DNA of 64,000 nucleotides from an uncultured Clostridia bacterium. GTDB taxonomy: Bacteria > Bacillota > Clostridia > Christensenellales > UBA3700. The DNA is taken from the NCBI GenBank assembly GCA_947646415.1, contig CANSGN010000001.1:3945-67944 (forward strand). The letters are read 5' to 3'. Both the position numbers and the translations under genes were made by a program. Under the pieces are notes generated by a model. It was not told the origin of the DNA, ran no database searches, and worked only from the letters and a program-made list of their open reading frames with translations. This document shows, piece by piece, positions 26,167 through 45,507 of this stretch (position 1 is its first letter; every line of letters begins with the position of its first letter).

Positions 26167-26402
26167 CATTGCCAAGATATTACTTAAAGTATATAGTAGT
26201 ATTCTTATTTTAAATTACAGATTTATAAAATAATATTCAAAAATATTCAATAATATTAAAAGTGACTTGCGGAATAGTAGGTCATTTTTTCTCTAAAAAT
26301 ATTTAATAGTTCAATTATTGGAGATATAATTATTTATTTAGAAAAAAATTGACTGATAATTAAACAAAAATAAAAATAATTATATATTATACAAAATGTG
26401 TA

Positions 26403-26431
26403 TTGCAAATTGGTAAAATTTACCTTATAAT
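26403..26431 (+). promoter_or_regulatory. sigma-A type promoter of the lipoprotein / giant-protein operon
   Basis: TTGCAA (26403-26408), 17-nt spacer, TATAAT (26426-26431), in a 300-bp AT-rich spacer. Confidence 0.5.
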
Positions 26432-26469
26432 ATAATTAGATATAATTAATGTAAAAGGGGGGTAGGATT

Positions 26470-26973
26470 GTGAAAAAGATATTTTTAAAATCAATGGTTA
26501 TATCAATGTTGATGGTTTTAATGTTGGGTATGAGTATGCTCTTTGTCGGATGTGAAGATTATGAAAATAAAGTATATGAAATTACTTTGCACCCAATACA
26601 TCCTATAACAGGCGAAGAAAGAAGTGAAGCATATATGACAATAGACAGTGAGACTTTATACGGAGATAGAGAGTTTATAGAAATAAAGTTTAAAGAAAAA
26701 GGCAAAAAAAAGTTTTTGCCAAACAAATATATATCTTTAAACGAACTAAATCATTTGGTTGATATTTATGTGTCTACATTGGACAGTGACTACAAGGAAA
26801 CAATCATGTTGCACGGGTCAATAAAATATCCAGAAAATATCCCAAAAGAAAAAGGGACATATAGAATTCAAGTTGAATTCAACAACTATACTTATGATGG
26901 ATATGGAAATATGTTGAGGCTATCGACTAAATTTGAATCCACATATATTAATTTTGGATTAAAAATAATATAA
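26470..26973 (+). CDS. small putative lipoprotein, paralog 1 of 3
   Basis: GTG start after GGGGGG/AGGA. Signal peptide ends in LFVGC (lipobox-like). 167 aa. The leader DNA is nearly identical to that at 27627. Confidence 0.7.
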   Translation: MKKIFLKSMVISMLMVLMLGMSMLFVGCEDYENKVYEITLHPIHPITGEERSEAYMTIDSETLYGDREFIEIKFKEKGKKKFLPNKYISLNELNHLVDIYVSTLDSDYKETIMLHGSIKYPENIPKEKGTYRIQVEFNNYTYDGYGNMLRLSTKFESTYINFGLKII

Positions 26974-27001
26974 TTACATTTAATTATAAGAGGAGTGACA
27001 A

Positions 27002-27088
27002 ATGTTAAAAAAGAAAAATTTAAAATACTTAAGCATGGTACTTGTTTTGGTTATGTTAATTACAATGGTTGTAATAACAGCATTATAA
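27002..27088 (+). CDS. 28-aa hydrophobic micro-ORF (possible signal-peptide remnant or small membrane peptide)
   Basis: AGGAG sits 6 nt before the ATG at 27002. Translation MLKKKNLKYLSMVLVLVMLITMVVITAL. Below the ORF-track length cut-off. Confidence 0.3.
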   Translation: MLKKKNLKYLSMVLVLVMLITMVVITAL

Positions 27089-27108
27089 AATAAAAAGGAG
27101 GATATAAT

Positions 27109-27612
27109 GTGAAGAAAATATTTTTAAAAACAATAGTTATATTAATGGTAACAGTTTTAATGTTAGGTATTAGTATGCTATTTGTGGGATGTGTAGAAGA
27201 GGAGGAAAAAGAGCCTGTATTTGAAATCAAGTTGTATGACGATAAATGGCAAGAACTAAAAAGACAAGGAGATAAAAGTTATACAAAGTATGAAGATTAT
27301 GTAGTAAAATATGACGGGACACGGAAGTTGTGTAATGCCATTGTATACAGAGACGGAAAAGAGTTTTATAGATTAGATTATAAGACAAATCCAAACTATT
27401 ATTATGATAGATGTTTAGAAGTATGTGAATATCGAAATGATTTTCATGAAGTCATTAAAGATAAAATGCCATATAAAGTAGGGGAGTATGAATTGATTTA
27501 TCAATATAGCTCCTATGGATATAGTAAAAACATAAATTATTTTGCAGGTAATCCATTGCCAATAAAGTATTATCATGATACGGAAAAAATTAAGCTAGTA
27601 ATACAAGAATAA
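27109..27612 (+). CDS. small putative lipoprotein, paralog 2 of 3
   Basis: GTG start after AGGAGG. LFVGC lipobox-like motif. Mature part VFEIKLYDDKWQELKRQG...YVVKYDGT is highly similar to the next gene. Confidence 0.75.
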   Translation: MKKIFLKTIVILMVTVLMLGISMLFVGCVEEEEKEPVFEIKLYDDKWQELKRQGDKSYTKYEDYVVKYDGTRKLCNAIVYRDGKEFYRLDYKTNPNYYYDRCLEVCEYRNDFHEVIKDKMPYKVGEYELIYQYSSYGYSKNINYFAGNPLPIKYYHDTEKIKLVIQE

Positions 27613-27626
27613 GGAGGGATAGGATT

Positions 27627-42856: not shown

Positions 42857-42915
42857 AATTAAGACAAAATATGTCTAGATTTTAATCAAATAAATTAATA
42901 ATCGATATAAAAAAT

Positions 42916-42955
42916 ACACCCCTAAACTTAATGTTTTGGGGTGTTACTTTTTATG
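42916..42955. terminator. bidirectional terminator hairpin of cassette 3
   Basis: acacccctaaac / gttttggggtgt (42916-42944), followed by tacTTTTTatg. It ends the upstream paralog. Confidence 0.7.
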
Positions 42956-43054
42956 TAAAGTTTAAAGTAGGCAAAAAGAGGTGTTCACTGCAATAATCCT
43001 ATCAAAAATCGGGACTATTGGGGGTAAAAATTTGCCTTTAATGTAAAGTTTGGG

Positions 43055-43229
43055 TACATGGAATAAATATATCTATGTACATATTATATGTATATTTTAA
43101 ACTAAAATGTAAGATAATGTCAACGTTATAGCAAAGGTTTTGTAAACTCTTTACTTTAAGCATACAAAAATTATATATTCAAACTCAAAAAATCCGTGAT
43201 TTTGTACATAGATATACTTATTCTATGTA
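43055..43229. promoter_or_regulatory. candidate invertible promoter segment (copy 3)
   Basis: Left IR at 43055-43081 and right IR at 43203-43229 enclose 121 bp. On the minus strand, TTGACA (43123-43118), 18-nt spacer, TAAAAT (43099-43094). Confidence 0.6.
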
Positions 43230-43251
43230 AGGTAAAAACGGAGGTTTTATT

Positions 43252-45465
43252 ATGGCAAAGATTATTAAAAGAGTTGGAATAGTATTTTTTGTGCTAGTAA
43301 TTTCCTTTCTATTAATATTAGGTTGCGTGTTCGCTGTAAATGTTGTCGAGCATGATAATTTTGCATCCTTAAATTCCGAAAACGTTGAGCAGACGGGTGT
43401 TGCCGATGAGGAATTTGTTCCCGATTTTATATTAAGCGGAACTAATGCACAAATAGAAAGTCAATGGAATACAATTATGCAGGCTGCATCAACAGATGCT
43501 ACGAGAAAAGAAAGAAAAATCAGATTAGACAGTGATTGGATTGCTACAACTACAGATGCTACACATGCATTTGGTACAGGAGTGGGATTTTATACAGGTG
43601 GTGCTATTGCTATACTTGCGCATACAAAGATAGTTTTCGATTTGAACGGACATACTATTGACAGAAAATTTGACGGAAAAAGTCAAGCCCAAACATTAGG
43701 TTGTTGTTTTGTAGTTGCAGGGGAATTGACACTTTTGGACAGTGCATACGATGCACAAGTTTTTGAGGACATATATATTAATGCAAAAGGTGACAAAAAT
43801 GTTTTGCAAAGGAAGATTGATAAAATTCGCGGTAATTACGGACGTATTAGTGGCGGTTGTAATACTACAAGCGGAGGCGGAATATATGTAGGTGCAAATG
43901 CTATTTTAACTATGTATGGAGGTATTATTAGCAATAACTATGCAGGATATGGCGGAGGCGTTACTTTGGATACCAATGCGTCTTTTAATATGTATGGCGG
44001 GGTTATATGCAATAATACAAATCTTGTCGATGGTGGTGGCATTTGTATTAGTAATGCAACATTTAATATGTATGATGGATTGGTTTTAAACAATGTAGCC
44101 CAAAGCTATGGAGGAGGAATTGCAGTTTCCGACTCATTAGCCGAAGTAACAAGTAAGTTTAATATGTATGACGGTATTGTTGCTTACAATACTTCATTAT
44201 ATGGCGGTGGTATTGCGTTTAGAGGTAAATCTGTGGGCGTGATAAAAAATGCAGATATTTCATATAATTATTCTTCCGGCAACTCGGCAGGGGTAGTTGT
44301 TTGGGATGACAATACAAAGGCCGATTTTTACGATTGTCGTATTACTAACAATTTATCCTATCATACTTCAGGAATAAACGGCGGTGCAGGTGTTTTAACA
44401 AATTCGGTAATAAATATATATAATTCGGAAATAACAGATAATACTTTTATTAATGGTATTAACTCCGAAATAGGTTATGGCGGCGGTGTGTACGTTAATG
44501 CCAATGGTAAAGCCAAATTGGATGGTGTAATAATAGCAAGAAATAATGCGTATTCGGATATTAATGATGGTTTACATTCGGCAGCTGGAGGAGTTGGTTT
44601 TGCTGCAACTGCACAGTTGCAATTAGGTAGTAATGTGCAAATATATGATAACACCGCTCACGGAATCAAGTCCGATTTAAGGTTGGAAGAAGGACAAAAG
44701 ATTAATGTAAGCAATATGGGCACAAATTCTTACATAGGAATAAAAACGGCAGAAGATTATGGAATAGCAAACTTTACTGTAGGTTATGGTGCAAATAACG
44801 GCAATCCTCCTACTCAATACTTTTTTAATAATGATTGCGACAAAATGGCTGTTTTGAACAATCAAGAGATATATTTTGAAAAGATTTTGGCAAGTGACGA
44901 ATATGATTTTATATTTTTTGAAAACGGCGTGCGTAAAAATTATAAGGAAAATAATTTGATTCACGCAGTAAATGACTATGCAAAAAGCAAAACCGTAAAT
45001 GGCGGTAAATTGATTTTGGGAAATATAAAACCTAATACAAGTGTAAACAGCTTTATTTCAAAAATCAATTTGAGTGCAAATCGCATTAAGTTGTTTGATA
45101 GCCACGGCAACCTTATTTACGATAAAGGTAATAGCGTAAGCGGGATAGATACAGCAACTTATGCAGATGACAAAATGTATTCCGTAGGTACGGGATGGTT
45201 ATTGGAAACATACGGCGAAAATAATGTAAAAATAGAAAATATAACTTTATCCGTATTGGGTGACGTAAACGGGGACGGCAGGATAAGTGCAAGTGACGTT
45301 TCATATCTAAGACAAATAGCAAATGATAGTGCTTTGTTTGATAGTTTGAGCGTAGAGAAAAAGCTTGCAAGCATTGTGTTGAATAAAGGTAGCGTAACTA
45401 CGGCAGATGCGGAAATCATAAGAAATGTACTTGGTAAACTACTTGAAATAGAATTGTTCTTTTAA
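43252..45465 (+). CDS. secreted GGxIY beta-helix repeat protein with one C-terminal dockerin-like module
   Basis: The first 66 nt are identical to the 39596 gene apart from one mismatch. GGGIY/GGGV/GGGIA repeats. C-terminus LGDVNGDGRISASDVSYLRQIANDS...NKGSVTTADAEII. Confidence 0.8.
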   Translation: MAKIIKRVGIVFFVLVISFLLILGCVFAVNVVEHDNFASLNSENVEQTGVADEEFVPDFILSGTNAQIESQWNTIMQAASTDATRKERKIRLDSDWIATTTDATHAFGTGVGFYTGGAIAILAHTKIVFDLNGHTIDRKFDGKSQAQTLGCCFVVAGELTLLDSAYDAQVFEDIYINAKGDKNVLQRKIDKIRGNYGRISGGCNTTSGGGIYVGANAILTMYGGIISNNYAGYGGGVTLDTNASFNMYGGVICNNTNLVDGGGICISNATFNMYDGLVLNNVAQSYGGGIAVSDSLAEVTSKFNMYDGIVAYNTSLYGGGIAFRGKSVGVIKNADISYNYSSGNSAGVVVWDDNTKADFYDCRITNNLSYHTSGINGGAGVLTNSVINIYNSEITDNTFINGINSEIGYGGGVYVNANGKAKLDGVIIARNNAYSDINDGLHSAAGGVGFAATAQLQLGSNVQIYDNTAHGIKSDLRLEEGQKINVSNMGTNSYIGIKTAEDYGIANFTVGYGANNGNPPTQYFFNNDCDKMAVLNNQEIYFEKILASDEYDFIFFENGVRKNYKENNLIHAVNDYAKSKTVNGGKLILGNIKPNTSVNSFISKINLSANRIKLFDSHGNLIYDKGNSVSGIDTATYADDKMYSVGTGWLLETYGENNVKIENITLSVLGDVNGDGRISASDVSYLRQIANDSALFDSLSVEKKLASIVLNKGSVTTADAEIIRNVLGKLLEIELFF

Positions 45466-45471
45466 CATAAA

Positions 45472-45507
45472 ACCAAAAAAGTCGGGCAACCGACCTTTTT
45501 GGGTTTT
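45472..45507 (+). terminator. intrinsic terminator
   Basis: ccaaaaaagtcgg / ccgacctttttgg hairpin, followed by gTTTT. Confidence 0.7.

Follow-up and report, generated by a model that had tools for sequence, protein, structure and literature searches.

We analysed a 64,000-nucleotide window on contig CANSGN010000001.1 and, within it, the interval 26167-45480, which lies between a GH31 glycosidase gene and the pyr operon. It holds genes for three small lipoproteins (Lpp), a giant secreted protein with a C-terminal Hint domain, an agr-type quorum-sensing set, a GLUG-motif lipoprotein and two dockerin proteins preceded by invertible promoters. The host belongs to an uncultured mouse-gut, Christensenella-like genus of Clostridia. 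An earlier note on this DNA had described the interval as one accessory block of about 19 kb that couples agr to the surface proteins and to two phase-variable genes.

Every gene named in that note was recovered by open reading frame (ORF) listing and by Pfam and NCBIfam profile searches, and almost all of the gene content is secreted, surface-associated or regulatory, as had been proposed. The same searches gave no integrase, transposase or recombinase ORF in 26167-45480, no tRNA was present within 15000-55000, and no flanking or att-like direct repeats were found around 26167-45480. The reported AT-richness was also confirmed: the G+C content of the interval is 31.2% as compared with 34.3% for the genome, which corresponds to the 11th percentile of 5-kb windows, and the flanks have 38-39%. 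PADLOC returned no defence-system match except a generic helix-turn-helix (HTH) match, and an Rfam scan of 25000-47000 at E<=1 returned zero matches and no PyrR element.

In what follows, G000 denotes the source genome (1.73 Mb), and G001, G004, G005 and G007 denote congeners, of which G007 is the sister species; L numbers denote individual loci or contigs. The related genomes compared were few and not independent of one another. The interval is divided into segments S1 to S4, and its features, with the adjoining end of GH31, are the following.

25054 to 26166, plus strand: GH31 glycosidase allele with an in-frame internal deletion; Pfam matches profile positions 1-113 of 328 (TIM barrel); outside the variable block
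26262 to 26290, plus strand: GH31 terminator hairpin and T-run; end of conserved sequence (homology with L041 stops at 26290) and left boundary of S1
26470 to 26973, plus strand: lipoprotein Lpp1; lipobox LFVGC; 87% identical to the G007 copy (tblastn)
27002 to 27088, plus strand: remnant of the first 28 codons of the 1545-amino-acid (aa) non-Hint giant allele; sequence MLKKKNLKYLSMVLVLVMLITMVVITAL, matching the start of the G007 giant
27109 to 28142, plus strand: lipoproteins Lpp2 and Lpp3 (starts 27109 and 27627), 61% identical to each other
28153 to 33117, plus strand: 1654-aa secreted giant protein; signal peptide, N-terminal region of about 650 aa, six Flg_new (InlB B-repeat) repeats, C-terminal Hint and helical tail
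32431 to 33114, plus strand: C-terminal Hint module; Cys1427, about 165 aa of Hint fold and a helical tail of some 60 aa
33126 to 33158, plus strand: giant-gene terminator at the S1/S2 boundary, common to both giant alleles; homology with the L036-L043 contigs resumes at 33101-33159
33456 to 33716, minus strand: orf86, divergently oriented to the XRE gene; belongs to the agr cassette, also found at the second agr locus and in G005
33862 to 34221, plus strand: XRE-family HTH regulator (Pfam HTH_26, HTH_3)
34269 to 34988, plus strand: AgrA-like response regulator (Response_reg E 1e-17, LytTR E 2e-15)
34985 to 36289, plus strand: AgrC-like membrane histidine kinase (HATPase_c_5 E 2.5e-17)
36275 to 36304, plus strand: LytTR-type box pair before agrB, GTTAGGGCA-N12-GTTAGGACA, 21-nt period
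36358 to 36948, plus strand: AgrB peptidase (PF04647 E 4.4e-34, residues 7-181; motif RSLSGGYHADTHFRC)
36934 to 36963, plus strand: more degenerate LytTR-type box pair before agrD, AATAAGGCA-N12-GTCAGGACA, boxes at 36934/36955
37028 to 37177, plus strand: AgrD precursor, 49 aa (TIGR04223 E 3.8e-9, 36.5 bits against a cut-off of 19); sequence SSACSWWFCQPKVPASM
37301 to 39145, plus strand: GLUG-motif lipoprotein, S3 (Pfam Glug); absent in L040, L041 and L043
39251 to 39595, plus strand: inverton cassette 1; terminator 39260-39288, leader, inverted repeats (IRs) 39399-39425/39547-39571, promoter TTGACA-18-TATAAT on the minus strand (OFF)
39596 to 42856, plus strand: family member 1, double-dockerin secreted protein; conserved start MAKIIKR at 39596; allelic between strains (1095, 993, 1010 aa)
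42907 to 43251, plus strand: inverton cassette 2; IRs 43055-43081/43203-43229, promoter TTGACA-18-TAAAAT on the minus strand (OFF)
43252 to 45465, plus strand: family member 2, 737-aa dockerin protein; 96% identical in G007, where it lies beside pyrB

Variation of the interval between strains and species

The flanks of the interval are constant: the genes for a peptidyl-prolyl isomerase, asnS and GH31 on the left and pyrB-pyrC-pyrF on the right are kept at 92-99% protein identity in four congeners. The content between them varies among congeners, and even among strains with identical AgrB, so that its accessory nature was borne out. The idea of one block or island did not survive the comparison, as at least four segments vary independently in the sister species and in near-identical strains. 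S1 (26291-33100) carries the lipoproteins and the giant protein and is allelic, or swapped for an IS200-type transposase; S2 (33101-37243) is orf86-XRE-agrACBD; S3 (37244-39206) is the GLUG lipoprotein gene, present or absent by strain; and S4 (39207-45480) comprises the two inverton genes. The breakpoints, at 26290, 27078, 33101/33159, 37243 and 39207, are sharp. Segment linkage was judged over nine strain and species contexts.

Among the congeners, G007 carries at this position an ECF-type sigma factor, two more genes, two lipoprotein genes, a 1545-aa giant without Hint and two inverton genes; agr and GLUG are missing from its interval. The sigma factor gene (G007:C8, L020 10366-12439), with those for a secreted protein of 283 aa (a weak Peptidase_C39-like match) and a membrane protein of 228 aa, precedes the Lpp-giant operon; with this sigma cluster, G007 has a dedicated regulator set of another kind in the same place. 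G005 has an intact GH31, a lipoprotein, a 1646-aa Hint giant protein and TetR-ABC genes, and in G001 an intact GH31 is followed only by LysR and XRE genes.

Strains closer to the source were represented by eight contigs with 100% identical AgrB. Two of them match the window, five carry the 1545-aa giant allele (three of these five also have, from the G007 sigma cluster, the genes for the 283-aa and 228-aa proteins), and one lacks the lipoproteins and the giant protein and has an IS200-type Y1 transposase in their place. GLUG is missing from three of the eight (L040, L041, L043), in which homology ends at 37243; it restarts at 39207 in L040, and the contigs of L041 and L043 end before that point. 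Consequently, agr occurs without the giant (L041), the giant without agr (G007, G005, L125, L126, L128) and agr without GLUG (L040, L041, L043). Of the four segments, the window has S4 but neither S2 nor S3 in common with G007, and S1 is allelic.

S1 is itself recombinant: a G007-type Lpp1 and the 28-codon remnant are followed by the Hint-type giant with its Lpp2 and Lpp3. The window aligns with G007, L036 and L042 only as far as 27078, and the remnant at 27002-27088 is the scar of a giant-protein cassette swap with its breakpoint at that position.

The earlier note had taken the left edge of the interval to interrupt a gene, which proved incorrect. In comparison with the intact 793-aa GH31 of L041, a contig from another sample that represents a near-identical strain with identical AgrB, the window allele lacks 1,269 bp (423 codons, in frame) at 26007|26008 (blastn). 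The deletion lies 160 bp within the gene, whose own final 52 codons, stop codon and terminator remain, and homology with L041 runs to 26290. As the deletion is internal and homology continues past it to the terminator, the GH31 lesion is unrelated to the block boundary. An intact GH31 of 793-794 aa is present in L041, G005 and G001, and G007 holds the same deletion allele, further split into two ORFs. At the opposite flank, a terminator-like hairpin with a T-run (45915-45962) overlaps the annotated pyrB ATG (45932), and the orthologues begin at the second Met (MRKDLLG, 45962). For these two reasons the hairpin is probably a pyr leader attenuator, even though the Rfam scan gave no PyrR element.

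Taken together, these comparisons make it probable that the interval from asnS-GH31 to pyr is a recombination or plasticity hotspot that holds four unrelated cassettes, and that their co-localisation reflects the hotspot and not a shared control circuit.

The agr cassette, the invertible promoters and the Hint module

The agr set named in the earlier note is complete, with AgrA, AgrC, AgrB and AgrD all present. In the AgrB motif GGYHADTHFRC, the His and Cys are 7 residues apart, as are the catalytic H77 and C84 of S. aureus. Translation of agrD predicts a thiolactone core C-S-W-W-F followed by a CQPKVPASM tail. The direct repeats before agrB (starts 36275/36296) and before agrD lie in regions that are about 75% identical over about 40 nt. 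When the spacers between kinase gene and agrB were compared across 12 paralogous or orthologous agr loci, the best direct repeat had a period of exactly 21 nt in 7, the repeat sequence being particular to each, and only 2% of shuffled sequences score >=10/12. The repeats are therefore very likely AgrA boxes, as predicted from sequence, and the two pairs in turn indicate autoinduction of agr. This gives a clear prediction of an AgrA box and of an autoinducing peptide core for a commensal agr system.

No LytTR-type direct repeats were found upstream of 26470, 27109, 37301 or the switch cassettes by a genome-wide box scan and a local spacer scan. When the intergenic spacers of the block, including those upstream of Lpp1, between Lpp1 and Lpp2 and between AgrD and GLUG, were scanned for repeats 19-23 nt apart, a single weak pair appeared, downstream of the giant-protein gene. 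The genome-wide agr-a box search returned one good extra site, C5:51908, between housekeeping genes. The agrD-GLUG spacer contains only a weak hairpin without a T-run.

A second agr locus of the source genome (G000:C2:116800-125800, L033) has the same layout of orf86, XRE, response regulator, histidine kinase and AgrB genes. Its agrD gene is duplicated in tandem, and agrB and both agrD copies are each preceded by a perfect LytTR box pair (TCCAAAAATGCAAAA, 21-nt period), three in all. The locus is followed by genes for a 75-aa peptide, a radical-SAM/SPASM enzyme, a PqqD-like protein and an ABC exporter, and looks like a quorum-sensing-linked cluster for a ribosomally synthesised and post-translationally modified peptide (RiPP). 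In the congener G004 (L022, L023, L026-L032), agr cassettes with differing AgrD cores lie, in most cases, directly before lipoprotein and large secreted-protein genes, some of which are then followed by fused ABC ATPase-permease genes. In L022 and L030, a conserved, structured spacer of about 150 nt separates agrD from the lipoprotein gene.

The claim of two phase-variable genes was partly upheld: two promoter invertons are present, but they are not a property of the block, as the same IR occurs 62 times across the 1.73-Mb genome. Each has inverted repeats of 25-27 nt around 121 nt, with a sigma-70 promoter (12/12 or 11/12) on the minus strand. The 62 copies of the IR core TGTACATAGATATACTTATTC in G000 form 30 complete pairs, in all of which the arms are spaced at 142 nt, and a further pair that is truncated at a contig end. 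Every copy follows one plan: a bidirectional terminator and a conserved leader come first, the left IR, the interior of 121 nt with its TTGACA-18-TA(T/A)AAT promoter and the right IR follow, and a ribosome-binding site then leads into a gene beginning MAKIIKR. The leader was considered as a known riboswitch, and no Rfam match was obtained. In all copies but one, the promoter faces away from the gene, so that 27-29 of the roughly 31 identical switches are OFF and 1 is ON. The flank-IR junctions of G000 comprise 27 OFF and 1 ON (C14:26281, same flanks), and those of G007 comprise 22 OFF and 0 ON. The two invertons of the block are OFF in the assemblies of the window, L036, L040 and G007. Because one switch family accounts for these two and for the other copies across the genome, about 31 in all, their presence says nothing on agr. 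Our literature searches found no description of agr-inverton coupling.

Profile searches of the whole of G000 matched 8 tyrosine and 3 serine recombinases. A 322-aa tyrosine recombinase (G000:C2:61721-62191, L013) lies among three switch copies (C2:51881, 64206, 67508) and is a candidate invertase; a 213-aa serine recombinase (C4:15270) is an alternative candidate. Six switch cassettes are located within a few hundred bases of contig ends (C1:362, C11:356, C25:25, C29:27, C13:51895, C23:16571). The repeated 410-bp cassette breaks the assembly, and the true number of switches may therefore exceed 31.

The three lipoproteins upstream of the giant gene (26470, 27109, 27627) are paralogues. In G005, L126 and L128, too, a gene for a lipoprotein of 165-166 aa directly precedes that of the giant protein. 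The Lpp-giant pair is the robustly conserved unit, and it is free of agr in G005, L125, L126 and L128. An AlphaFold2 model of the N-terminal 650 aa of the giant had a predicted local distance difference test (pLDDT) score of 56.6, too poor for a fold search. At the other end, the Hint domain is marginal by sequence (PF01079 E 0.0011; Pfam, NCBIfam and PDB phmmer matches all sub-threshold), and it was the structure that vindicated it. An AlphaFold model of the last 265 residues, built with 30 homologues, reached a pLDDT of 79 and a predicted template-modelling (TM) score of 0.70, and all 43 PDB matches obtained with it by Foldseek at E<=1e-3 are Hint domains. The best of them are the Hedgehog autoprocessing domain 1at0, bacterial intein-like (BIL) domains and mini-inteins (probability 1.00, TM 0.64-0.80), and Tetrahymena BIL2 and C. 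thermocellum BIL are among the matches.

Cys1427 (C38 of the modelled fragment), at the junction of passenger and Hint, is invariant in the 30 aligned sequences. Over a final stretch of roughly 230 aa, more than 1,155 secreted proteins share 60-75% identity; they come from gut Clostridia, both Christensenella-like and others, and the cultured Pumilibacter intestinalis is among the sources. Their passengers vary: they include BspA-type leucine-rich repeats (LRR_5), Flg_new, subtilase (Peptidase_S8), papain-like peptidase (Peptidase_C1) and hydrolases. No Pfam or NCBIfam model covers the Hint-plus-tail module, and we found no description of it in literature searches. By analogy with Hedgehog, we infer that the module may cleave itself at the cysteine, and that the passenger could then be released or transferred to an acceptor. 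A polymorphic toxin with a pre-toxin Hint was also considered. Nothing follows the tail of about 60 aa; because this tail is conserved at 60-75% across differing passengers, and because no conserved small gene that could encode immunity was seen downstream, this reading was rejected. A widespread, unannotated module thus emerges, carried by more than 1,000 gut-clostridial surface proteins, and the choice between release and covalent anchoring is directly testable. Together with the multiplied agr cassettes of G004, it is the most interesting by-product of the analysis.

Shared position or shared control

In the hotspot reading, four unrelated cassettes would have accumulated at this site in the source strain. 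In S1, an Lpp and giant operon would yield a giant protein exported by Sec and displaying InlB-type B-repeats, and the Hint module may cleave or transfer its passenger at Cys1427. In S2, AgrB would process AgrD to a C-S-W-W-F thiolactone peptide sensed by AgrC, and AgrA, to judge from the boxes, would bind the two repeat pairs of 21-bp period and drive agrB and agrD in a positive feedback. S3 is the GLUG lipoprotein gene, and S4 comprises two of the approximately 31 members of the dockerin family, each behind its own invertible promoter, with both switches OFF. The cassettes would be exchanged one by one, probably through homologous recombination at short stretches that they share, for which the 5' ends encoding signal peptides, the terminators and the 410-bp switch cassette are candidates.

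Several observations weigh against the view that agr and the giant gene share a position only. In the source species, agr adjoins whichever giant allele is present. G004 (2.1 Mb) has about 10 AgrB genes, and at five to six loci the genes for response regulator, histidine kinase, AgrB and AgrD are followed by those for a lipoprotein and a large secreted protein; the adjacency in G004 and in the source species exceeds chance alone. Moreover, 4 of the 5 genomes with the giant protein also hold agr, and, within the family, agr and the N-terminal domain of the giant are essentially confined to this genus. As to the missing boxes, AgrA targets may lack recognisable ones, and control could be indirect, e.g., through an RNA or the XRE protein.

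These observations bear on a partial module, in which agr would be a dedicated density switch for the adjacent Lpp-giant operon and/or GLUG, the Hint giant would be made only at high density, and the invertons would be bystanders. The order of genes in G004, seen at no fewer than five loci, argues for it, all the more as three of the large proteins downstream of agr end in the same Hint module (65-67% identity to that of the window) and two have the same N-terminal domain as the window giant. The second agr locus directly precedes the radical-SAM/SPASM-PqqD-ABC peptide cluster, so agr tends to adjoin cargo, and there is a clostridial precedent in CA_C0082 of C. acetobutylicum, an agr-downstream gene that is an agr-controlled effector (PMC10301443). 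The weak hairpin between agrD and GLUG would also fit. However, Lpp1, Lpp2 and GLUG all lack an upstream LytTR box pair, agr and the giant occur without each other in the strains and species listed above, and GLUG is missing in three agr-bearing strains. AgrB was found within 10 kb at only 3 of 80 Hint-module loci from many genomes, all three from G004, and L125, L126 and L128, as well as G005 and G007, have no agr near their Lpp-giant loci. In addition, read-through from the agr promoter cannot reach the giant gene, because in the window this gene precedes agr and is closed by a strong terminator. We therefore regard a partial module as unlikely. Equally doubtful, in our opinion, is its extension to the genus, by which agr cassettes were recruited as private density switches for Lpp and giant operons whose Hedgehog-like module cleaves or transfers the passenger at the surface; they would have multiplied to about 10, with distinct peptides, in G004, and the window would hold one rearranged pair (S1 and S2).

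Far less probable still is a degenerate mobile island, i.e., the whole 19 kb as one decaying integrative element whose integrase or transposase has since been lost. A G+C content below that of the flanks (31% vs 38-39%) and the strain variant with an IS200-type Y1 transposase at the S1 position could be taken to suggest it, but integrase, att-like direct repeats and tRNA are lacking, the G+C content is merely at the 11th percentile of the genome, the segments differ in phylogenetic distribution (G007 has S4 but neither S2 nor S3, and S1 is allelic), and the GH31 truncation is an internal deletion, not an insertion scar. As for the joint control by cell density and inversion that the earlier note had envisaged, it is a conjecture without positive support.

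One element of the coupling proposed for the interval, the order agr-lipoprotein-large protein, finds some comparative support in G004, but the four parts of the interval are gained, lost and swapped independently. Exchange in a hotspot thus remains the probable explanation of their co-localisation. The strain comparison, which splits an apparent 19-kb module into separate cassettes, cautions against reading function into gene neighbourhood in a plasticity hotspot, and provides a precise map of exchange breakpoints for an uncultured mouse-gut lineage.

Comparison with known systems

Each component of the interval is of a kind already known, and the hotspot is ordinary. The agr cassette has all four components in common with agrBDCA of S. 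aureus and with clostridial agr (C. difficile agr2, C. acetobutylicum). The GG-H...C motif of AgrB, the Cys+4 ring and P-x-V-P tail of AgrD, the HPK10-type kinase and the LytTR regulator are agr-like, and so are the direct repeats with a 12-bp spacer before agr genes, which imply autoinduction. In contrast to known agr systems, the gene order is A-C-B-D with a divergent orf86/XRE pair in front, agrB and agrD each have their own box pair instead of a single shared P2 promoter, and no RNAIII-like divergent transcript was identified. Additionally, the approximately 10 paralogous agr cassettes of G004 are unlike known agr systems.

The Hint module resembles the Hedgehog HhC (Hint with a helical sterol-recognition tail) in its Hint fold (Foldseek matches 1at0, 6tmm and 2lwy), invariant junction Cys, extreme C-terminal place and short helical tail, and it shares the Hint fold with the BIL domains of clostridial surface proteins. 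It differs from a splicing intein or a pre-toxin Hint in that nothing follows its tail, and from the Hedgehog/BIL group in that this tail is conserved, not polymorphic, and has no Pfam or NCBIfam model.

The switch family is similar to the Mpi/capsule promoters of Bacteroides fragilis, the RecV sites of C. difficile and mpl of Mycoplasma penetrans, in which short IRs flank a promoter directly before surface-protein genes, and which are likewise present in many copies per genome, mostly OFF. It differs from these systems in that a Gram-positive genome of 1.73 Mb carries about 31 copies, whose 27-nt IRs are nearly identical and whose interior is always 121 nt, and in its cargo, dockerin proteins with a conserved signal anchor.

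As in other genomic plasticity regions and hotspots, the core flanks (asnS-GH31 and pyrB) are fixed, the accessory filling is particular to the species or strain, the breakpoints are sharp, and alleles are replaced as cassettes. Unlike the usual hotspots, this one has no integrase or tRNA, its filling consists almost only of surface or secreted proteins and regulators, and one of its exchangeable units carries the 410-bp switch cassette, which may itself supply the homology for exchange.

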